Of a stretch of DNA of 64,000 nucleotides, positions 10,185-53,453 are shown in pieces (positions within the stretch are counted from its first letter, which is position 1; each line of letters starts with the position of its first letter). The position numbers and the translations under genes were made by a program. The stretch is from NCBI GenBank assembly GCA_902797685.1, contig CADBTQ010000007.1, positions 7,290-71,289 on the forward strand, given 5' to 3'. The stretch comes from an uncultured Eubacteriales bacterium. Lineage in GTDB: Bacteria; Bacillota; Clostridia; Christensenellales; CAG-1252. Under the pieces are notes generated by a model. It saw only the letters and a list, made by a program, of their open reading frames with translations, did no database searches and was not told the DNA's origin.

Positions 10185-11042
10185 ATGATACTGTTAGACG
10201 GCAAACAAACGGCAAAAGCCGTAAGAGAGAAGATCAAAATCTGCGCCCAAGAGGCGATGGCTAAGTGGGGCGACCCCATTACGTTGGCGGTGATACTGGT
10301 CGGGGAAGACCCCGCCAGTCAAGTGTACGTGGGCAACAAGATCAAAGGTTGCGCCCAAGTGGGATTCGAGTCCCGCAAGGTGGTGCTGCCCGAGACGGCG
10401 AGCCAAGAGGAAGTCGCCGCGTCTATCCGCGCCCTCAACGCCGACCCCTCGGTACACGGGGTGCTGTTGCAGCTGCCTCTGCCCAAGCATCTCGACGAGC
10501 AGGCGTTGCTCGCCTTGATCGACCCCGACAAGGACGTGGACGGACTGCATATCGTACAGCGGGGCAGACTGTTTTGCGGCTTGCCTTCTCTACTCCCTTG
10601 CACCCCCTTTGGGATCATGAAACTGTTGGAGACCTACGGGATCGATCCCGCGGGCAAGCGCGCGGTCGTGATCGGGCGCAGTAATTTGGTGGGCAAACCC
10701 TTGGCGATGATGCTCCTCAACGCCAACGCCACCGTGACCGTGTGCCACAGCCGCACCCTCGATCTACCCTCGGTGACCAAAGAGGCGGATATCCTCGTCG
10801 CGGCGGTGGGCAAACCCAACTTTGTGACGGCGGACATGGTCAAAGAAGGGGCGATCGTCATCGACGTGGGCATCAACCGCGTGGACGGCAAATTGGTGGG
10901 AGACGTCGATTACGACGAGGTCGCCCCCAAGTGTTCGTATATCACTCCCGTGCCGGGCGGCGTGGGACCCATGACCGTGACCATGTTGCTCGCCAACACC
11001 CTGAAGGCGTACGAAAACGTACACGCGATTGCCGCGCAATGA
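10185..11042 (+). CDS. folD: Bifunctional methylene-THF dehydrogenase / methenyl-THF cyclohydrolase
   Basis: 285 aa: [17 protein letters not shown]...[14 protein letters not shown]...[13 protein letters not shown]. Adjacent to fhs. Confidence 0.92.
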
Positions 11043-11292
11043 TATAGGCAAAGCCTATGATATACCCTTGGGGATATGATATAGACCTTCGGTCAATGAT
11101 ATACGGCTACGCCGCATGATATACGACCTACGGCCGTATTGCGGATAAAATCGAATAGATGGACTATTTGTCAAATCAAATAGACACCAAAATATCCCTC
11201 GAGGACTCGTCCCCGAGGGATATATCATATTCGAGCGCCGCTCGAATATATCATACCGCTTTGCGGTATATCATAGGCGCAGCCTATCTCAT
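11039..11292. repeat. Modular hairpin-array element, copy A1 (ATGATATA left arm / conserved core / TATATCAT right arm)
   Basis: ATGATATA occurs at 11039, 11057, 11076, 11096 and 11116, each followed by a different 3-5 bp GC stem with a 3-nt loop. The core contains TATTGCGGATAAA...TTTGTCAAATC...AATATCCCTCG. TATATCAT occurs at 11221, 11247 and 11267 (degenerate at 11285), separated by longer hairpins. Homologous copies lie at 48175-48447 and 52959-53250. Confidence 0.85.
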
Positions 11293-11305
11293 TGTGTCGA
11301 AGGCA

Positions 11306-28586: not shown

Positions 28587-28713
28587 ATTGCTGACGCAAT
28601 GCGATATATCTGTTGTCACAGATGCGATATATCCGCAGTCTCGGATGCGATATATCTGTTGTCACAGATGCGATATATTGCTAACGCAATGCGATATATC
28701 TTGCAAGCAAGAT
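28587..28713. repeat. Hairpin array B-left: 5 x GCGATATAT linkers alternating with 12-14 nt hairpins (period 21-23 bp)
   Basis: GCGATATAT occurs at 28601, 28624, 28647, 28670 and 28691. The hairpins are ATTGC-tgac-GCAAT, ATCTGT-tgtc-ACAGAT (twice), ATCCG-cagtct-CGGAT, ATTGC-taac-GCAAT and ATCTTGC-aa-GCAAGAT. Confidence 0.85.
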
Positions 28714-28743
28714 GTAGTGGGTCGCTTTGCTCCGAAAGATCGG

Positions 28744-29103
28744 TCAGTTTTCGCCGTTCTTTTTGGCAGTAGTCACGGAAGCGATCAATTTCCTACGTAT
28801 CGTACCGCACTTATTGAACAGCGATTTGTAACGATCGGGCGATAGCGCGCCGGTCTTGTACAATATCTCCAACCAATACTCCGTTTCGTAGCACTCCTTA
28901 AGCGCGATTTCCATTTTGTTGATAAAATCGGCGCGACTTTGTGCATAAAACCCTTCGTGTGCGTTGGCGCCGATGGAAGAACAGGCGCGAAGCAGTTGGT
29001 TGACGAAGATAGCCTTCCCTTGGATGTGTTCACAAAGCATTGTCAACTCCACCGTCAAATCAACCGCCAACTCTTTGATCGTTTTGTCTTGAGTCATCGC
29101 CAT
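28744..29103 (-). CDS. Four-helix-bundle protein (23S rRNA intervening-sequence protein / Avd family)
   Basis: 119 aa: ..VNQLLRACSSIGANAHEGFYAQSRADFINKMEIALKECYETEYWLEILYK.. matches the remembered family pattern (QLxRAxxSIxANIxEG...DFxxKxxIAxKExxETxYWLxLL). The start was placed at MAMTQDK. The 183-aa ORF-track version runs into the right hairpin array. Confidence 0.78.
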   Translation of the reverse strand: MAMTQDKTIKELAVDLTVELTMLCEHIQGKAIFVNQLLRACSSIGANAHEGFYAQSRADFINKMEIALKECYETEYWLEILYKTGALSPDRYKSLFNKCGTIRRKLIASVTTAKKNGEN

Positions 29104-29121
29104 CTTTCCATTATCCACAGC

Positions 29122-29228
29122 ATCTCCCTTAGGAGATATATCGCGCCGAAGGTATATCGCACGCAAAGCGTATCTCGCAAATCCGCTCTGCGGATTTATC
29201 TCGCCGCAAGCGTGCTCTGCACGCTTGC
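29122..29228. repeat. Hairpin array B-right: AT(A/C)TCGC linkers (reverse complement of the B-left linker) alternating with hairpins
   Basis: The linker occurs at 29138, 29154, 29172 and 29198. The hairpins are ATCTCC-ctt-AGGAGAT, ACGC-aaa-GCGT, AAATCCGC-tct-GCGGATTT and GCAAGCGTGC-tct-GCACGCTTGC. The last abuts the proS stop codon. Confidence 0.8.
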
Positions 29229-34208: not shown

Positions 34209-35888
34209 ATGGACTACAAGAGAGAGATCGCCAAACTATTTGCCCCTCACCTCACCGAGGAGGAGGCGTACAGCCTGCTCGTGCCCCCCAAGGATATCGC
34301 CATGGGGGATATTTGCTTGCCCTGTTTTCGCTTGGCAAAGACCATGCGTATGTCTCCCGTCGCTATCGCCGACAAGTTGGCGGCGGAATTGACCTTGCCC
34401 CCCTTCGTCGCCGAAGTCAAATCGGTAGCGGGCTACCTCAATTTCAAGTTCAGTTCGCACGACTTCGCCTCCACCGTGTTGGGCAACGTGTTGTCCCAAG
34501 GGGCGGTTTACGGCAAGTCGGACTTGGGCGCAGGCAAGACCGTGTGCATCGATTATAGCTCCATCAATATCGCCAAACCCTTCCATATCGGGCATTTGTC
34601 CACCACCGTGTTGGGCGCGGCGCTCTACCGGCTGTATAAGGAGTTGGGCTACAACGTCGTGGGCATCAATCACCTGGGGGATTGGGGCACCCAATTCGGC
34701 AAGTTGATAGTCGCCTATCACAAGTGGTCGTCCAAAGAGGAGATCGAGCGTGGCGGCGTGCGCAAGTTGGTGGAGATCTACGTCAAGTTCCACCAAGAGG
34801 CGGAAGACCATCCCGAGTTGGACGAGGAAGCGCGCTCTTGGTTCAAAAAGTTGGAAGACGGGGACGAGGAAGCGGTGTCTTTGTGGAAGTGGTTCAAGGA
34901 GATCACCCTCGCGGACGACGTGCCCATTTACGACCGCTTGGGGGTGCATTTCGACTCTTACGCGGGCGAAAGCTTTTACAACGACAAGATGGACGCCGTG
35001 GTGGACGAGTTGGCTGCCAAGGGGTTGCTGACCCTCTCGGACGGGGCGCAGATCGTGGAACTGGACGGCATGCCCCCCTGCATCATCCGCAAGTCGGACG
35101 GGGCGACTCTGTACGCCACCCGCGATTTGGCGGCGGCGTTTTACCGCAAGTCCACCTACGACTTCGCCAAGTGTCTGTACGTGGTGGCGTATCAACAAAA
35201 CCTCCACTTCAAGCAATGGTTCGAGGTGGTACACAAGATGGGCTACGAGTGGTACAAGGACTTGGAGCACGTGGCGTTCGGTATGGTGAGTTTGGAGGAC
35301 GGCGCCATGAGCACCCGCAAGGGCAACGCCGTGTGGCTGACGGACGTACTGGATAAGGCGGTGGAGAAAGCCGCCGAGATCATCAAGCAAAAGTCCCCCG
35401 ACCTCGACGATCCCAACGAAGTCGCCGAGATGGTGGGCGTGGGTAGCGTCATCTTTTCGGCACTCATCAACAACCGTATCAAGGACATCGAGTTCCGCTA
35501 CGACAAGATCCTCAATTTCGACGGGGAGACCTGCCCCTACGTGCAATACACCCACGCCCGCTGTGCGTCTTTGCTCGCCAAAGCGGGGGAGTGGCAAGCG
35601 CCCCGAGATTACGGCGCCCTCTCGGACGACGTCGCCAAGGACATCCTGCGCAATTTGGAGAGGTACCCCTCTCTGCTCAGGGAAGCCGCCGACAAAAACG
35701 AGCCGAGCATGATCACCCGCCACGTGGTGGATCTGTGCAAGTTGTACAACAAGTTCTACTTTGACAACAAGATCCTCACCGCTCCCGACGGCGTGCGCGA
35801 AGCCCGCTTGGCGTTGACTTTAGCGGTCAAGACGGTGATGGAAAACGGCATGGCGATCATCGGCATCCGCTTGCCGGACAAGATGTAG
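34209..35888 (+). CDS. argS: Arginine--tRNA ligase
   Basis: 559 aa: ..SSINIAKPFHIGHLSTTVLG.. (HIGH) and ..MSTRKG.. (KMSK-like). Confidence 0.93.
   Translation: MDYKREIAKLFAPHLTEEEAYSLLVPPKDIAMGDICLPCFRLAKTMRMSPVAIADKLAAELTLPPFVAEVKSVAGYLNFKFSSHDFASTVLGNVLSQGAVYGKSDLGAGKTVCIDYSSINIAKPFHIGHLSTTVLGAALYRLYKELGYNVVGINHLGDWGTQFGKLIVAYHKWSSKEEIERGGVRKLVEIYVKFHQEAEDHPELDEEARSWFKKLEDGDEEAVSLWKWFKEITLADDVPIYDRLGVHFDSYAGESFYNDKMDAVVDELAAKGLLTLSDGAQIVELDGMPPCIIRKSDGATLYATRDLAAAFYRKSTYDFAKCLYVVAYQQNLHFKQWFEVVHKMGYEWYKDLEHVAFGMVSLEDGAMSTRKGNAVWLTDVLDKAVEKAAEIIKQKSPDLDDPNEVAEMVGVGSVIFSALINNRIKDIEFRYDKILNFDGETCPYVQYTHARCASLLAKAGEWQAPRDYGALSDDVAKDILRNLERYPSLLREAADKNEPSMITRHVVDLCKLYNKFYFDNKILTAPDGVREARLALTLAVKTVMENGMAIIGIRLPDKM
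35829..35888 (+). repeat. Left copy of a perfect 60-bp direct repeat (last 60 nt of argS including the stop)
   Basis: AAGACGGTGATGGAAAACGGCATGGCGATCATCGGCATCCGCTTGCCGGACAAGATGTAG is identical to 37444-37503. Confidence 0.95.
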
Positions 35889-36340: not shown

Positions 36341-37435
36341 ATGGACGAAAATGATCAAGTTGAACTAAGAACGCAAGATGCAAATTCTTTTTTTTCTTCG
36401 TTACCTTTATATCATAGATCAAAGATTCTTAACCAGTATGTAGAGGAGGACAAGGAATATAGAAAAAAGTTGAGTGTAGGAATGCTTTCTCTCCTTCTCG
36501 CCGGCGGGGTAATTCTTGGGGGCGTATCAATTATTACATGGTGTTTTGACGAGGTTATAGGTTTCTCGATATTTATTGCTTTTTTGGTATTTGAGCTTGT
36601 TATGACCATAATTATTGGATTGGTCTGGCATAATGCAATTAAAAAAGGAGTCATGAGCAAAAGGAAACGTTCTTTAATGACGGAATCGGAGTTATGTGCC
36701 GATTATCTTGATAATCATCATCATGAAGTGATAATTCTTCAAAAGCGATATGCCGATATGATGGAAAACCATTTCTCCCCATCAAGTGTTTATTTGTTGC
36801 CAAACAAATATGAATTATATCTTGATAATGTAGCAAAGAGGTTTTGTCTCTTCCAATCATACAATGCAAAGTATTACGACTATAAGGACATAATAGGATA
36901 TGAGGTTTATCAAAACGAACAAGAAATGTCTTACCAAAGTGGGAATAGCGGGAAAGCCCTTCTGGGTGGTCTTGTTCTTGGTGTACCGGGCGCTATTGCA
37001 GGTGCCGCTGGATCTAGGCATATTAAACTTGAAAAAACGATAACCAATTTATCTTTGATTATTAAAGTTAATGATCCCTTAGAACCTATTATTCGGATTG
37101 TCTATCTTAATTCAAATCAACCATCACCCCCTGTTGTTGAAGGAACAGAACGACATAGTTCACTGCAACATAGCATACAAGAAATTTGCGCAGTGATTGA
37201 AATAATGAAATCACAAGCAAATAAGCCTCATACGAACCCAAATACAAAATCACCTATACCCGATGCCACCAATAATACTACAGTAGTCGCAAGGTTGCCA
37301 AGACAGCACATTATTAATAATGAAACTGATATAAAATCACGATTAACGGAATTGAAAGACTGGCACGATGAAGGACTAATTTCCGACGATGACTACGAAG
37401 AACTAAAAAAACAAGCACTATCTAAGTTGCGGTAA
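36341..37435 (+). CDS. Membrane protein with two TM helices, a glycine-zipper segment and a C-terminal SHOCT domain (364 aa)
   Basis: TM helices LSVGMLSLLLAGGVILGGVSIITW and FSIFIAFLVFELVMTIIIGLVW. Glycine zipper GKALLGGLVLGVPGAIAGAAGS. C-terminus RLTELKDWHDEGLISDDDYEELKKQALSKL (SHOCT pattern). Confidence 0.75.
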   Translation: MDENDQVELRTQDANSFFSSLPLYHRSKILNQYVEEDKEYRKKLSVGMLSLLLAGGVILGGVSIITWCFDEVIGFSIFIAFLVFELVMTIIIGLVWHNAIKKGVMSKRKRSLMTESELCADYLDNHHHEVIILQKRYADMMENHFSPSSVYLLPNKYELYLDNVAKRFCLFQSYNAKYYDYKDIIGYEVYQNEQEMSYQSGNSGKALLGGLVLGVPGAIAGAAGSRHIKLEKTITNLSLIIKVNDPLEPIIRIVYLNSNQPSPPVVEGTERHSSLQHSIQEICAVIEIMKSQANKPHTNPNTKSPIPDATNNTTVVARLPRQHIINNETDIKSRLTELKDWHDEGLISDDDYEELKKQALSKLR

Positions 37436-37443
37436 TATTAGAT

Positions 37444-37503
37444 AAGACGGTGATGGAAAACGGCATGGCGATCATCGGCATCCGCTTGCCGGACAAGATG
37501 TAG
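37444..37503 (+). repeat. Right copy of the 60-bp direct repeat (orphan argS 3' fragment)
   Basis: Identical to 35829-35888. Confidence 0.95.
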
Positions 37504-48050: not shown

Positions 48051-48063
48051 TTTCCCTCGCAAG

Positions 48064-48131
48064 TGATAGTCAATCTATCAAAATGATAACCTATCTATCA
48101 AAATTATATCTTATATAATCAACCCTGTCAA
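48064..48131 (-). promoter_or_regulatory. Consensus promoter (TTGACA-N17-TATAAT on the minus strand) followed by two palindromic operator-like sites
   Basis: -35 = reverse complement of 48126-48131; -10 = reverse complement of 48103-48108. Inverted repeats TGATAGtcaatCTATCA (48064-48080) and TGATAacctatcTATCA (48084-48100) lie between the -10 and the start codon. Confidence 0.6.
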
Positions 48132-48174: not shown

Positions 48175-48447
48175 ATGAGATAGACCCTCGGTCAATGATA
48201 TATCGGCAAGCCGATATATGATATACGCCTTAGTCGTATTGCGGATAAAGCTATCAGACGTGTCATTTGTCAAATCGATCAAACACCACAATATCCCTCG
48301 GAGGCTTTGCCCTCGAGGGATATATCCTGTTCGAGCGCGGCTCGAATATATCATACCGCAGTGCGGTATATCATAGGCAAAGCCTATCTTATTGCCTTTG
48401 GCTTGCCAACGGCAGTGCGGTATATCGTATCACACGTGATCTATCAT
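48175..48447. repeat. Modular hairpin-array element, copy A2
   Basis: Same core (TATTGCGGATAAA..TTTGTCAAATC..AATATCCCTCG) and right-arm hairpins as A1 and A3. The left arm has 3 hairpin modules. Confidence 0.85.
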
Positions 48448-48546
48448 CTCCCCGCGGCTTCGGAACGTTTTTTTCTCTGTGAACGATAAGGGGAACACGG
48501 GTGGATTATTCCTTTTTTGGTTTATATTTTTTTTCTCAAAAAAGGG

Positions 48547-48575
48547 TTGCTTTTTTTACTTGCTCGCCGTATAAT
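48547..48575 (+). promoter_or_regulatory. Putative promoter TTGCTT-N17-TATAAT for the lipoprotein/surface-protein module
   Basis: Hexamers read directly, about 90 nt upstream of the ATG at 48667. Confidence 0.45.
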
Positions 48576-48666
48576 GTTGAGGCTGTCCCCGATTTCGGAC
48601 GAAAAAAAGCAATGTGTGCGACAAAAAAGTCGTGTTTTTTGCTTTGTAAAATATATGGAGGAAAAT

Positions 48667-49218
48667 ATGACAAAAATCAACAAAATAACGATTATTCTCT
48701 TGCTGCTTGTTTTTTGCGCGCTCTGTTCCTTTGGGCTTGTCGGATGCAGGAGCAAAGCACCTAGCGACCAGAGTTATTGGTATGGGACGTACAAGTATGA
48801 CGCGTCCTTAACTCGTGTTATTATTGAAATAGAAGGTGATGACTCTTCCAAGACAGGGATGTTAAGCACTTTGCGCCAAGACGGAATAGATATAATCGCT
48901 TACGATGGTCTTCGTAATTATGATTTCGAGTGGGGCACGGATAATTACAGCCTATTACAGTGGGAAATAGAGAATATACAGCACGACATCATCGTAAATA
49001 AAAAAGGATTTCATATGGGGCACGGGATCATGCAATGGGCTGAGCGGGAGTTTATTTCCGAGTTATCCAAGGATCCCGCAAGCATACGAAGCGTAAGTTG
49101 CCTTGGTCTTGGTTCGTTCGACCAGTTGGCGGTTCGATATAGTGTCGTATTGCCGATCACTTTGCCTAAGGGCAATATGACGATTAAGTTTTTCGTGGAC
49201 TACATAAAAGCAAAATAG
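48667..49218 (+). CDS. Lipoprotein of unknown function (183 aa)
   Basis: MTKINKITIILLLLVFCALCSFGLVGCRS lipobox. The ATG at 48667 lies 5 nt after GGAGG. The ORF-track start at 48517 is upstream of the promoter. Confidence 0.7.
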   Translation: MTKINKITIILLLLVFCALCSFGLVGCRSKAPSDQSYWYGTYKYDASLTRVIIEIEGDDSSKTGMLSTLRQDGIDIIAYDGLRNYDFEWGTDNYSLLQWEIENIQHDIIVNKKGFHMGHGIMQWAEREFISELSKDPASIRSVSCLGLGSFDQLAVRYSVVLPITLPKGNMTIKFFVDYIKAK

Positions 49219-49247
49219 CAGCGTCCACGGTGATAAGAGGTAGAAAA

Positions 49248-52200
49248 ATGACAATTAAGCATAAAATGAGTGGTATCATAACTGTTTTATCTATACTGAT
49301 TACGGTGTTGGTAATTTCCTCTGCGGGAAGTGAAGCGACCGCTTCCGCTGACGACATCTTTACTCCTGATGATGAATTTGTTTATTGTGTTACAAAGGAC
49401 GGCGTAGGCTTATGGAATTATATTGAAGAATATAATGAATGTGAAATTGCGGTATCGGAATTAATTACGCATTATAATATCAATATTGGTCAAACATTCG
49501 GTAACGGTGTTATTATACAAAACATGTCTACTGCACACAGTTTAGTATGTTCGCAGGATGATAACATAGTTAAGTTTGTACCTAAGACTGCTTTCATCAA
49601 CGTTGGCACGGTAATGCATATCGGTGAGGACTATGGGTTTGTCATCAAAACCACTGTGGATACAGATCCTGATAATTCGAGTAGGCACTATAATCGTAGT
49701 ACTGTCATTATTATAAAGAACGAAAGCCATTGGCAAGGTGATATGTTTTGTATAAAACTAACTGTTTGCGCTACTATTGATTACTTCTGTTTTGATCAAA
49801 GTGGCGTCGTTGCTCTTTTGCAGGAAGTAGATGATGGTAGCAATATAGGGCGTATTACCTCAACGAAATGGAACTTGATCAAGAGTGCGGGCGTAGACGG
49901 TTGGGTTGTGGTGCCGGCTATACGTTTATATAACGTAGACACTTATGGACATCCCATTGTTACAGTTGCAAAATCCAATAACCTGACGTTAAGTAATCTT
50001 TCGATTGGGTCACGTATCTATAATTTGCAGAGTTATAATACATGGGATTCGGAATATGACCCCAACACGGACGACGGATATTATTTGATCGGTGCGCAAT
50101 ATTTTTATCAAGTAACACAAAAACATGGTGAGTGGAATACCCAAAGCAGCGTTGTAGGGATGGTTAAAGAGTTTGGGAAGATTGCTTTGGGTGCACTTGT
50201 TGATACGGTCGCTGATTATTTGAATTTGTCCTCTCTGAATACGTTTTATGAAGCAAGTGAAGGTTTGCTTGCGCTGACCGGACAAATACAAACGGTCCAA
50301 GATGTACACTTGACAAACAATGAAAACGGTTTGGTGTATCCCGATTTCGCTTATGCAGGGGTTAATACTCGAACCAATCAAATCGCTCAATTCGGGCGGT
50401 TAGTAAAAGATAGCAGTATGCTCTTTGACCAAACAGCCGGAATATTATGCTATGGTAAGGACGAGTACATAGAGGCAAGGTTTAATTATTCTCATACGGA
50501 TGGCAAAGCTGAGCCCACAAGGTTGGATTTGTCAGTGGGTGGATTGGTAATCGACAACCGAGAGGGTGGCGGTAATGACGCAGTAGTTAACGAGGCACAA
50601 CTATTTACTTATAAGAATTGCGGGGCGAGCATTGCGCCTTCTCTTTCTCTTAATCTATGCCAAAGTAGAATCTATTACGCAATTTATGATAGTGCAATAC
50701 CTTCCTATGTCTTTACCCCCACGTATAATGGTACCTATGCGTTGCAGTTGGACGGAAATGTCGGCACGGTGGAGATAGACGGGCAAGTGGCGTCGGGTAA
50801 CAACGGCTGTTACCTTTTCGAGGGCATTGCCAACACGCCTGTCAACATAGTATTGCGTCCATCGGGTGACACTATCATCAAAGGCACGTTGTCGATAGAC
50901 GTCCATCAAGGCGCGCAGGCTTTTCCGTCCAACCAGACGAGAATTACCAAGATCGACATTCCTACGGACGGCATCTATGCGGCGTGCAATAACTCTTTGC
51001 AAGTAAATGCGTTACTCAAAAGCGACTTTTCGGAGTATCGAGCGGGAGGGGTCGGTTGGTCGGACACGGCGAATATGATCCCGCTGCCCGCCGGCACCTA
51101 TTATTTGCTCGTCGACAACGATACAGACCATAGTATAGAGGCAGGAACTTTCTTAGAGAAGGTAACGTCCAACAACTTGGTGTCGTCTGTGGCGAAGTCG
51201 GTATCATTGACCGACAAGTATTCATTTTACCGCGCGTCGGCGGAGCGAGACAAAGGATATTGTATCGCCCCCCAAAACGAATCGTTATCTCCCGTGTACT
51301 ATACTTTTGTTGATTCAACGTTTTGTAGTTTTTCGCCTATGGCGGTAGGCGGCAACTATGCTCGCATTAGTTCACAACCTATCGATACTTATTATTACGT
51401 GGGTGTGAGGCTGTATGAAGGCATAGCAGACGCGCAACTATTGTGGAAGCAAGACGCGGGCAGCGGTGCGTGGCTCGTCGACGGGGCGTCTGTCGGCACG
51501 CATTGTTCGTTGGAGCGCAATCGTTCTTATACAATCTCGTATTTTCATAATGGGCAATATACCGTGTCGGACATTGATTTGGACGGGAGCTCGTCGCCTA
51601 ATTTCAATTTGGTAAACAACACGTTTACCATATTGCCTACGGCGGATTTGGGGCAGACCTTCGTGCTGCGGGCGCAAGCCGGTCTCGGCGCACATTACGA
51701 TTGTCAACTGACCATTACGACAGTACGAGAGAACAAGATATCGCTATCCGCAACAAACACGGCGACCGCTTGTGCCGTCAATTGGACGGCGCTGTTGCCG
51801 GGGATTACCGAATTTGACGTTGAATTATACGGGGATTCAACCGGCACGCACGCCGTTAGGACCGTAACGACCGACGGGGCGATGAGCGGCACCGTCAACT
51901 TGCTCTCAATGACCGGTACTCACTATACGCGTGCCGTGGTACGCAGAGTCGTGTTTGAGGGGAGATCAAACGTAGGCGATAGCTATGAGACTGCGATTGA
52001 CAACTGGTTCGGCGGCGGATCGGGCGTGGAGAATGCACCGTATTTGATTAAAAATATACGGCACTTTAATAACATTTACCATGCCAACGCCGCTTATTAC
52101 AAACAAACGGTGCATTTGAATTTCGGCGGTACGGCACCGCGGGCGGGCGTAACCTTCAACGGCAATTACAATGGCAACAATAAACGGATATCCGGTATCG

Positions 52201-52901
52201 TTCGCACCGTCACTATGACGGCTAGCAGCCCGACGTCAGGCAGTTTCGGCGGGTTGTTTGATATTTGCGGTGGCACTATTCGGGGCATTTCGTCGTACGT
52301 CGCGACAGTAAGTGTTACTGTTTATAACGTGCTATCCGCTTATCATATCGGCGGCGTTGTCGGCACTATGACGGAGGGTAGTTCCATTGCGGGATTAATG
52401 TTTGCCACTACGGTGTCGAGCAACACGCATAGCGCATATGGCACTATCGGCGGTGTGGCGGGATTGTCCGGTGGCGTGGTATCTGCGTTAGCATTCGGCT
52501 CCATCAATTTGAGCGGTTGCGGCAATATGGGCGGCATCGTTGGGCACAATTGTGCGAGCGGTCGAGTGAGCGGCGGGTTGGTAGACACCCAAGTTAATTT
52601 TCGTGTATATTCCGGATTCAGTCCCAATATCGGCGGCGCGGTAGGGCTCAACGAAGGATACGTTCATACGTCATTGGAAGCGAATATTACGGTAGTAGGG
52701 AGCATGGACTCCATTTTGTTGAGGAAATGCACCCCTCGGGTGGGAATACTGGTTGGATATAATCACTTGGGCACGGTGACCCACGGCGAGTTGGACGATA
52801 CGTGTTCGATAGACGTTTCGTCGCTGACCGGCGCAACCTTGACGTATGCGACGGGCGCGGCGATCGGACGAGACGAACCAGCGCCCGAGCAAAACGGATA
52901 A
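49248..52901 (+). CDS. Large secreted/surface protein (1217 aa) with PPC-like beta domains and C-terminal GLUG-like glycine-rich repeats
   Basis: Signal peptide MTIKHKMSGIITVLSILITVLVISSAGSEATASA. ..LPAGTYYLLVDNDTD.. is PPC-like. Repeated GGVVG/GGVAG/GGIVGHN/GGAVGLN units near the C-terminus are GLUG-like. No LPXTG motif was seen. Confidence 0.7.
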   Translation: MTIKHKMSGIITVLSILITVLVISSAGSEATASADDIFTPDDEFVYCVTKDGVGLWNYIEEYNECEIAVSELITHYNINIGQTFGNGVIIQNMSTAHSLVCSQDDNIVKFVPKTAFINVGTVMHIGEDYGFVIKTTVDTDPDNSSRHYNRSTVIIIKNESHWQGDMFCIKLTVCATIDYFCFDQSGVVALLQEVDDGSNIGRITSTKWNLIKSAGVDGWVVVPAIRLYNVDTYGHPIVTVAKSNNLTLSNLSIGSRIYNLQSYNTWDSEYDPNTDDGYYLIGAQYFYQVTQKHGEWNTQSSVVGMVKEFGKIALGALVDTVADYLNLSSLNTFYEASEGLLALTGQIQTVQDVHLTNNENGLVYPDFAYAGVNTRTNQIAQFGRLVKDSSMLFDQTAGILCYGKDEYIEARFNYSHTDGKAEPTRLDLSVGGLVIDNREGGGNDAVVNEAQLFTYKNCGASIAPSLSLNLCQSRIYYAIYDSAIPSYVFTPTYNGTYALQLDGNVGTVEIDGQVASGNNGCYLFEGIANTPVNIVLRPSGDTIIKGTLSIDVHQGAQAFPSNQTRITKIDIPTDGIYAACNNSLQVNALLKSDFSEYRAGGVGWSDTANMIPLPAGTYYLLVDNDTDHSIEAGTFLEKVTSNNLVSSVAKSVSLTDKYSFYRASAERDKGYCIAPQNESLSPVYYTFVDSTFCSFSPMAVGGNYARISSQPIDTYYYVGVRLYEGIADAQLLWKQDAGSGAWLVDGASVGTHCSLERNRSYTISYFHNGQYTVSDIDLDGSSSPNFNLVNNTFTILPTADLGQTFVLRAQAGLGAHYDCQLTITTVRENKISLSATNTATACAVNWTALLPGITEFDVELYGDSTGTHAVRTVTTDGAMSGTVNLLSMTGTHYTRAVVRRVVFEGRSNVGDSYETAIDNWFGGGSGVENAPYLIKNIRHFNNIYHANAAYYKQTVHLNFGGTAPRAGVTFNGNYNGNNKRISGIVRTVTMTASSPTSGSFGGLFDICGGTIRGISSYVATVSVTVYNVLSAYHIGGVVGTMTEGSSIAGLMFATTVSSNTHSAYGTIGGVAGLSGGVVSALAFGSINLSGCGNMGGIVGHNCASGRVSGGLVDTQVNFRVYSGFSPNIGGAVGLNEGYVHTSLEANITVVGSMDSILLRKCTPRVGILVGYNHLGTVTHGELDDTCSIDVSSLTGATLTYATGAAIGRDEPAPEQNG

Positions 52902-52958
52902 GCTTGCGTCGAATCGGTACACAGCCGCCAACACACCTGCGGCAGTGATTGCTTCACA

Positions 52959-53250
52959 ATGATATAGCCTATGGCTATGATATATCCCTTTGGGATATGA
53001 TATAGACCTTCGGTCAATGATATACGACCTATGGTCGTATTGCGGATAAAACTATTAGATAGGTGATTTATCAAATCAATCAAACCACACAATATCCCTC
53101 GGAGGCTTTGCCCTCGAGGGATATATCCTATTCGAGCCCTGCTCGAATATATCATACCGCTTAGCGGTATATCATAGGCACTGCCTATCTCATTGCCTTT
53201 GGCAAGCCATAGGCAGTGCGGTATATCATATCCCGTGGGGGATATATCAT
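52959..53250. repeat. Modular hairpin-array element, copy A3
   Basis: ATGATATA modules with ATAGCC-tat-GGCTAT, CCC-ttt-GGG, GACC-ttc-GGTC and CGACC-tat-GGTCG. The core and right arm are nearly identical to A2. Confidence 0.85.
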
Positions 53251-53424
53251 TTGCAATTCACCCGCTTTCGGTTGCCTGAAAACGGGTGAATTGTATTTAC
53301 CGCTCGGGCGTATCAAAATCGGGCGCAAAGGGGCGTTTTGCCCGCCGTTTTGGGAAAAATCGGGGATTTTTACCCCAAAATGCGATTATTAACAAAACTT
53401 AATCAAAATCAAAGCAACAAGTAT

Positions 53425-53453
53425 TTGACGGCAAAACCCTTTATATATATACT
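53425..53453 (+). promoter_or_regulatory. Putative S10-operon promoter TTGACG-N17-TATACT
   Basis: Hexamers read directly. A structured leader of about 195 nt follows before rpsJ. Confidence 0.5.

Follow-up and report, generated by a model that had tools for sequence, protein, structure and literature searches.

Modular hairpin arrays of the Gut-1 family in an uncultured Clostridia genome and their probable tie to PF05635 cassettes

The REP and BIME sequences (repetitive extragenic palindromes and bacterial interspersed mosaic elements) of enterobacteria and the Correia elements of Neisseria are multi-copy extragenic palindromes at operon ends, built from variable modules in alternating orientation. 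They are co-transcribed with their neighbours, possibly with terminator or outward promoter activity, and they are sites of rearrangement. Avd is an adaptor protein, a basic pentamer of four-helix bundles, that acts together with a reverse transcriptase and structured RNA. The Avd of diversity-generating retroelements belongs to the PF05635 protein family (PMC10053308). Some intervening sequences (IVSs) in 23S rRNA carry an S23p/PF05635 ORF, and that of Coxiella burnetii is described as a selfish element that is excised by RNase III at a stem formed by its terminal inverted repeats (PMC4990558). Finally, the Gut-1 motif (Rfam RF01706) was described by Weinberg et al. in 2010 (PMC2864571), and none of the later papers searched mentions it. 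Here, we analyze three copies of a hairpin-array element, A1, A2 and A3, in a stretch of 64,000 nucleotides (the window) from an uncultured Eubacteriales bacterium (contig CADBTQ010000007.1, positions 7,290 to 71,289). All three are members of the known but unexplained Gut-1 family. The reading we prefer, as probable though with no great assurance, is that they are gene-less copies of a transcribed modular Gut-1 element that is tied to cassettes carrying a PF05635 gene.

When read and aligned, A1, A2 and A3 are homologous and follow one common plan, in which an upstream arm of short hairpins joined by ATGATATA is followed by a core, a long hairpin and a downstream arm whose hairpins are joined by TATATCAT, the reverse complement of the upstream linker (Table 1). 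The window contains 22 occurrences of ATGATATA versus 0.72 expected, and 20 of them lie inside A1-A3. In A3, the upstream hairpins are ATAGCC-tat-GGCTAT, ATATCCC-ttt-GGGATAT, ATAGACC-ttc-GGTCAAT and ATACGACC-tat-GGTCGTAT, while the downstream arm consists of TTCGAGC-cct-GCTCGAA, ATACCGC-tta-GCGGTAT, ATAGGC-act-GCCTAT, a composite hairpin and ATATCCC-gtg-GGGGATAT. The 3' half of the A3 long hairpin is also complementary to the 5' half of the second arm hairpin (GATATATCCCT). With its flanks, A3 folds to -158 kcal/mol on either strand (z = -11.8 and -12.8 versus shuffles). Such a pattern far exceeds what chance would produce.

An earlier note on this DNA had described invariant stems and variable loops in the right arm, and our alignment agrees for TTCGAGC/GCTCGAA (loops gcc, gcg and cct), ATACCGC/GCGGTAT (ttt, agt and tta) and ATAGGC/GCCTAT (gca, aaa and act). 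Pairwise among the three copies, these hairpins differ at 0/120 stem positions and 17/27 loop positions by hand count. The same alignment bears out the variable left arms, with 5, 3 and 4 modules in A1, A2 and A3, respectively, and the two core boxes, GCGGATAAA and TTT(G/A)TCAAATC, which occur in all three copies around a divergent spacer but have been lost or replaced in L004, L251, L124 and L252. The stems in the window never vary, which on its own is uninformative about whether structure is maintained. The note's suggestion that loop-only variation reflects a maintained secondary structure is instead borne out at the level of the family, as described below.

To place the element, we scanned the whole window against Rfam and then made local searches with the Gut-1 model, which has a gathering score of 50 bits. 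The single above-threshold match in the whole-window scan is Gut-1, at the left arm of A3 (53.8 bits, 52957-53028, plus strand). Below the cut-off, the local searches are significant for the right arm of A3 on the minus strand (35.1 bits, 53118-53195) and for the two arms of A1 (47.1 bits on the plus and 42.1 bits on the minus strand), and they return a further match at 28622-28702 (25.4 bits, E = 0.006). At least three tandem covarying hairpins with a conserved linker, the mark of Gut-1, are present in 25 relatives, in which the linker is invariant. Taken with its flanks, the Gut-1 seed alignment is likewise laid out in two arms, hairpins joined by GUGAUAU preceding a short core and hairpins joined by AUAUCAC following it. 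One of the seeds follows what appears to be the 3' part of a tRNA-Arg, read by eye in a truncated gene that is not callable by ARAGORN.

Relatives were collected by scanning one genome per species for three ATGATATA spaced 9-20 nt apart, which gave at least 118 loci; our counts of array clusters and class-1 copies, and the tRNA and terminator statistics, refer to the matches listed in that scan. The hairpin-bearing carriers among them are nearly all uncultured gut or rumen Clostridia, including Acutalibacteraceae, Oscillospiraceae, Faecousia, "Eubacteriales" and Christensenella metagenome-assembled genomes, and one complete carrier genome has an isolate-style strain name (NZ_CP188040.1) and a class-1 copy behind tRNA-Asn (L078). 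Several other genome matches to the triple ATGATATA pattern were excluded as tandem repeats without hairpins. We observe two mirror layouts of identical topology, with the TGATAT arm preceding the ATATCA arm in class 1 and the reverse order in class 2, as well as a third subfamily with GCGATAT/ATATCGC linkers. The numbers of modules in the two arms tend to equality, with 4/4 and 3/3 dominating, the 3' partner of the first hairpin occurs in duplicate, and single-arm arrays exist. A metagenome scan with the window-type core returned only one contig, a cassette-less allele, and a BLAST search of A3 against plasmid and phage collections gave no match. A scan of viral contigs with the arm pattern hit mostly giant-virus contigs, which we set aside as probably unrelated repeats.

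The fold of the element is maintained by selection. For 25 class-1 elements, we tested covariation over six hairpins and 42 pairs; the MAFFT alignment placed hairpins H1, H4 and H7 inconsistently for RNAalifold, and the columns of H1 and H7 were set by hand and H4 was left out. Pairing is observed in 96.9% of cells versus 88.3% when sequences are shuffled and 24-50% when they are slid. Once these copies are aligned, 16/42 pairs have changed on both sides (85 cells), a level that 0/500 shuffles reach. In addition, we find a long-range helix, P1, formed by the tail of the centre, which is complementary to the 5' half of the first hairpin and in many cases to the loop of that hairpin as well, such that the whole upstream arm is enclosed. 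The contiguous complement averages 10 nt for self pairs versus 4.2 nt for non-self pairs. The sequence of P1 changes from locus to locus and from subfamily to subfamily, and in every case the partner strand changes to match it; examples are ATATCCGTTCC, ATATAAATTCC, AAATCCCT and CAAGCCGCAG, and further CATTGCGAAAG, CATTACGGAGT, TCCTTGCGAA and CAAGTCGCAG.

Since both the hairpins and P1 covary, the latter even at loop positions, the object of selection is the fold of a single strand, with the loops and the number of modules free to vary. Complementarity that tracks loop positions is explained by a folded single strand and cannot be explained by a protein site in duplex DNA. P1 closes only the upstream arm, which is always the tRNA-proximal arm in tRNA-linked copies, and the element therefore has polarity. 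A two-arm "zipper" through complementary linkers, forming a ladder of four-way junctions, is not needed because single-arm arrays exist.

A related observation concerns ATAGGCAGTGC in A3 (53209-53219), whose complement within the hairpin ATAGGC-act-GCCTAT (region 53175-53219) spans part of the 5' half together with the loop and the 3' half. The equivalent tail in A2 (48375-48420) does not match that copy's own loop, aaa. Either the match in A3 is another long-range pairing that includes a loop, or it records conversion between copies.

The polarity is also seen in the genomic address. Among the array clusters, 34/100 have the 3' end of a tRNA facing them within 300 nt, usually at 37-72 nt, and 0 have the opposite arrangement; the tRNAs concerned are of many identities. 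At the other end, a near-consensus promoter, TTGAAA-N17-TATAAT, starts 1 nt past the last linker and points away from the element in 14/25 class-1 copies, with an upstream TG in 9 of the 14. The element is directional and occupies junctions of transcription units, with a tRNA gene or the stop of an open reading frame (ORF) before it and the next promoter or ribosome-binding site after it. Within the window, the convergent genes folD and pmbA enclose A1, with the folD stop codon inside its first ATGATATA and its end about 10 nt short of the pmbA stop. A2 is found between a TetR promoter region and a lipoprotein-like gene, and A3 between a 1223-aa ORF and the promoter of the S10 operon (TTGACG-17-TATACT at 53425-53453). 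A Pfam scan of 106 flanking ORFs detected no transposase, integrase, recombinase or reverse transcriptase.

The gene downstream of many tRNA-linked copies encodes a TIGR02436/PF05635 protein, and 14/14 PF05635 genes in the collected loci lie within 400 nt of an array, either between the arms or just after them. The window holds one such cassette (28588-29228), which on the minus strand reads proS, array, PF05635 gene, array, apt. A PF05635 ORF flanked by inverted repeats is thus found here and not in A1-A3, which have no ORF. The encoded protein matches an array-linked homologue from L042 (phmmer E = 2e-25), and its closest solved structure is the uncharacterised PDB 2RLD (E = 3e-22); PADLOC returned no match for it. 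In the sister species L281, whose Apt is 81% identical, the proS-apt spacer is 77 nt long and has one ATATCGCA in place of the cassette, so the whole cassette represents an insertion or a deletion. At two other loci (L082 and L266), the upstream arm recurs behind the PF05635 gene, such that direct repeats of one arm bracket the other arm and the gene. Contigs bearing PF05635 are mostly shorter than 2 kb (including L279 and L280), and two contigs end inside the PF05635 gene of the window. Metagenome assemblies seem to break at these cassettes, an indication of many similar copies per genome or community.

Whether the folded strand is RNA or single-stranded DNA can be approached through mismatches and position. 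Stems are nearly all Watson-Crick, and with elements oriented by the upstream tRNA, the transition-type mismatches comprise 38 G.U versus 10 A.C. Many of these positions are homologous, which makes this a modest indication in favour of the sense strand of the flanking units. The sense strand of a tRNA gene is usually also the lagging-strand template. Since the sense strand is the transcript and, for co-oriented genes, the lagging-strand template as well, the G.U bias cannot separate RNA from single-stranded DNA. At five PF05635 loci, which we retrieved without regard to arrays, a distance of 15-25 nt separates the end of the array from the start codon, with the ribosome-binding site adjoining the last linker, and we find no terminator after the upstream gene. 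The start of A1 inside the folD stop codon likewise counts for transcription, and the window cassette runs the same way as its genes, which GC skew places on the lagging strand. We favour RNA as the likelier of the two, with transcription suggested by position in part of the family.

On the reading that we prefer, the unit would be a short perfect hairpin with an invariant AT-rich linker, (A/G)(T/C)GATAT(A), strung into an upstream arm and usually followed by a second arm with the linker reverse-complemented. The folded strand would be a transcript rather than lagging-template DNA, and the invariant linkers, which stand between the hairpins, may be recognition sites for a trans-acting factor, with an oligomeric, Avd-like PF05635 protein as the foremost candidate. 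A1-A3 would then be retained solo arrays, with no dedicated promoter in the core, that act on neighbouring transcript ends through processing, stability or insulation.

Several observations weigh against this reading. The identity of stem sequences among paralogues is not explained by selection on pairing alone. A PF05635 gene adjoins no more than about 13% of arrays, the linkers differ between A1-A3 (ATGATATA) and the PF05635 cassette of the window (GCGATATA), and the putative binding of this protein is something we purely infer. The plus-strand stems of window-type copies contain 188 Watson-Crick, 0 G.U and 2 A.C pairs and thus carry no RNA-type signature in A1-A3, and the two strands of A3 fold equally well. 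Lastly, the tRNA-linked copies lie between a strong intrinsic terminator and a promoter and look untranscribed unless there is read-through.

The behaviour of the element among strains bears on whether it is instead a DNA-level repeat. The strains compared differ at 4-6% of synonymous third codon positions, and over this distance we observe gain and loss of modules, replacement of the core and exchange of modules between copies. Variants of A1 are found in L001-L004 and L251; hairpin 1 of L004 is that of A3, and the tail of the A3 of L124 is that of A2. By hand count, loops have changed at about 12/53 positions versus 74/1441 third codon positions. The spacer between TetR and rpsJ takes three forms: one element without an insert (L126 3338-4091; L250), two elements bracketing three paralogous lipoprotein-like genes of about 183 aa (L124 5215-7300), and two elements bracketing one such gene and the 1223-aa ORF (window 48448-52958). 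In the last of these, A2 and A3 bracket a strain-variable low-GC insert of two genes (48517-52901). The genes between paired elements mostly have no Pfam domain, and those of the TetR-rpsJ insert gave neither a Pfam nor a PADLOC match. Whole elements also occur in tandem, as three copies in L054 (93-635) and two in L252 (10856-11330).

These patterns would fit a REP/BIME-like or MITE-like (miniature inverted-repeat transposable element) palindrome that spreads as DNA, whose hairpins matter only in single-stranded lagging template, as substrates of a linker-recognising enzyme such as a Y1/HUH transposase. Such a repeat could account for near-perfect palindromic stems with very few mismatches, for inverted arms that present the motif on either strand, for tandem copies, for the loss of modules between direct repeats and their exchange between copies, for the variable gene inserts flanked by elements, for broken assemblies and for the presence or absence of the PF05635 cassette between species. 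The G.U bias fits as well, the sense strand of tRNA genes being usually the lagging template. However, neither a transposase nor an integrase is seen among the 106 flanking ORFs, class-1 ends have no target-site duplications, and the terminal inverted repeats extend over only 6-12 nt. With loops close to saturation, the paralogues are not recent identical copies but old ones, and the genes of the window cassette lie on the GC-skew lagging strand, opposite to the lagging-template rule (a single case). Moreover, an orthologous element is kept behind folD in a species with 84% FolD identity, where TATTGCGGATAA, the ATATCCCTCG hairpin and ATACCGC/GCGGTAT are all retained; this persistence is the product of long-term purifying selection and does not befit junk. 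We consider a DNA-level repeat unlikely, though it has to be taken seriously.

Carried further, the tie to PF05635 leads to a bolder proposal, to which we attach somewhat less credence still: Gut-1 may be the nucleic-acid half of an unrecognised cassette of gut Clostridia, whose Avd-like PF05635 protein would bind the array linkers as a ribonucleoprotein that controls, processes or mobilises the cassette. Candidate modes for such a particle are IVS-like excision, retro-mobility with a reverse transcriptase of the host, and pairing in the manner of a toxin with an antitoxin RNA. In that case, gene-less arrays of the A1-A3 kind would be relics or trans-acting sites that were seeded where tRNA genes and operons end.

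We regard as improbable that the arrays form a passive boundary module, in which partnerless strings of hairpins block 3' exonucleases, aid bidirectional termination and separate units, as REP does in E. coli. The arrays are always intergenic and at unit junctions, as this would have it, and of the 10 occurrences of a bidirectional terminator, TTTGTC...GACAAA, in 813 kb, 9 adjoin an array, from which we conclude that this terminator travels with the element. The long hairpin of A1 with its T-rich tail scores as terminator-like on the minus strand, for pmbA, and a hairpin with TATTT follows A3. What a boundary function leaves unexplained is an 8-nt linker that is invariant across genera, a covarying P1, a fixed polarity, the identity of stem sequences among paralogues and the tie to PF05635.

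The earlier note had tentatively proposed that the left arm gives rise to an RNA of about 110 nt, with hairpins joined by UAUAUCAU, from a minus-strand sigma-70 promoter in the core. The motif itself, TTGACA/TTGATA-N17/18-TTTTAT, is literally present in A1-A3. Its function as a promoter is unsupported, and with it the RNA. A in the second position of the -10 hexamer is near-invariant, and a scan with the sigma-70 consensus called no promoter in the core of A1-A3 because this A is lacking. The -35 box TTTGTCAAATC is not conserved: it is missing in 5/10 copies compared, strain variants of the same loci have lost it or carry other sequence instead (L004, L251 and the A2 of L124), and it is absent from both tandem copies (E1 and E2) of the sister species L252. 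In other subfamilies, the core is about 30 nt long and too short for a promoter, or a whole gene occupies the site. The G.U bias of the relatives favours the sense strand of the upstream unit, which for the upstream arm is opposite to the proposed RNA, and the promoter that is conserved in relatives lies outside the distal end, directed away from the element. No dedicated conserved promoter of the kind expected for an independently transcribed small RNA (sRNA) was found for A1-A3 and their relatives. We therefore give this model almost no credence. An integration host factor (IHF) site and a DnaA box in the core were also considered and dropped; TTATCCGCA fits the DnaA box at 8/9 positions by eye only and is not conserved in relatives.

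Just as far-fetched is an array of double-stranded DNA sites, in which ATGATATA would be an iteron- or centromere-like protein site and the palindromic spacers incidental. The 8-bp motif does recur 3-5 times per arm in inverted arms of mostly equal number (4/4 and 3/3), but its spacing of 17-36 bp has no helical phasing, the spacers covary as hairpins, the long-range complement includes loop positions, and some arrays have a single arm.

Table 1. Features of the hairpin-array element, its flank and the PF05635 cassette, in window coordinates.
Feature	Position	Strand	Description
A1	11039-11294	+	five-module upstream arm, core, long hairpin, three-module downstream arm
Array, six hairpins	28588-28712	-	linked by TATATCGC (reverse complement of the upstream linker); between PF05635 stop and apt start; repeat family D8
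PF05635 four-helix-bundle gene	28744-29103	-	119 aa; Pfam 81 bits versus cut-off 33.8; between two inverted arrays
Array, five hairpins	29121-29228	-	linked by GCGAGATA/GCGATATA; directly after proS stop, directly before PF05635 gene
A2	48175-48447	+	three-module upstream arm, core, long hairpin, downstream arm
A3	52959-53250	+	four-module upstream arm, core, long hairpin, downstream arm
A3 upstream arm	52959-53038	+	four hairpins linked by ATGATATA; Gut-1 match
A3 core, about 50 nt	53039-53091	+	boxes GCGGATAAA (53042-53050) and TTTATCAAATC (53067-53077); site of proposed minus-strand promoter
A3 central long hairpin, 14 bp	53092-53124		ATATCCCTCGGAGG-ctttg-CCCTCGAGGGATAT
A3 downstream arm	53125-53250	+	hairpins linked by TATATCAT; Gut-1 match on minus strand
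Hairpin, then TATTT	53254-53293	+	CAATTCACCCG...CGGGTGAATTG; just past A3, upstream of S10-operon promoter

Elsewhere in the window, two tetO-like palindromes, TGATAGTCAATCTATCA and TGATAACCTATCTATCA (48063-48131), stand beside a perfect minus-strand TTGACA-17-TATAAT, in what looks like the control region of TetR and a major facilitator superfamily (MFS) gene abutting A2. An exact 60-nt direct repeat (35829-35888 and 37444-37503) consists of the 3' end and stop of the ORF ending at 35888 and brackets a 37%-GC segment with a 364-aa ORF (36341-37435), which looks like a target-duplicating insertion. A low-GC block at 40-44 kb with four ORFs contains intergenic repeats that are 93% identical (40001-40112/41381-41492 and 41459-41518/44105-44164). 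Possibly, this block is a further region of the cassette kind, with a repeat of its own and no relation to the hairpin arrays.

Gut-1, an Rfam entry since 2010, had no host, context or function attached to it; it now has carriers, among them many Oscillospirales-type metagenome-assembled genomes, along with a full architecture, a tRNA address and a candidate partner in PF05635. Two orphan features, Gut-1 and the PF05635 protein annotated as "23S rRNA intervening-sequence protein" or Avd, are thereby joined in one testable hypothesis. For annotators, the arrays call for caution, as they break assemblies and mark strain-variable insertion slots.

When compared to known systems, the element shares with REP/BIME and Correia sequences its multi-copy extragenic palindromes at operon ends, its variable modules and its role as a rearrangement site. 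It differs from REP/BIME in having no GTAG-type head, no REP-associated tyrosine transposase (RAYT) nearby among the 106 flanking ORFs, and stems that differ within one array. It differs from Correia in lacking a TA duplication and 26-bp terminal repeats, and from both in its strong linkage to tRNA 3' flanks and to PF05635. With respect to features of MITEs and Correia elements in general, there is no direct duplication at the ends, the only terminal symmetry is TTTCAATGATAT/ATATCATTGAAA, and a filled versus an empty site is seen for the PF05635 cassette only, where the flanks are too diverged to define junctions. Integron attC sites were considered and rejected, with no R''/L''-L'/R' boxes (GTTRRRY) in A1-A3 and no integrase among the flanking ORFs. 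Avd has in common with the present system the protein family of the array-linked gene, whereas no reverse transcriptase, template repeat or variable repeat is seen beside any array here.

The resemblance to the PF05635-associated IVS lies in inverted repeats that bracket a PF05635 gene within a transcribed region, beside stable-RNA or housekeeping genes and with a sporadic distribution among relatives. Here, however, the flanks are arrays of small hairpins with complementary linkers rather than complementary whole arms, the site is an mRNA or tRNA spacer (proS-apt, or behind tRNA or methyltransferase genes) rather than 23S rRNA, and most copies, including A1-A3, have no ORF. Closest of all is Gut-1 itself, with which the element shares tandem short hairpins, a conserved purine-rich linker (GUGAAAU/GUGAUAU there, AUGAUAUA here) and a gut habitat. 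Whereas the Rfam model is limited to three hairpins from a single arm, classed as an sRNA gene without known function and found in metagenomes only, the element described here is two-armed and 260-300 nt long and includes a closing helix that covaries, besides its core and long hairpin, and its carriers and its linkage to tRNA genes and PF05635 are identified.

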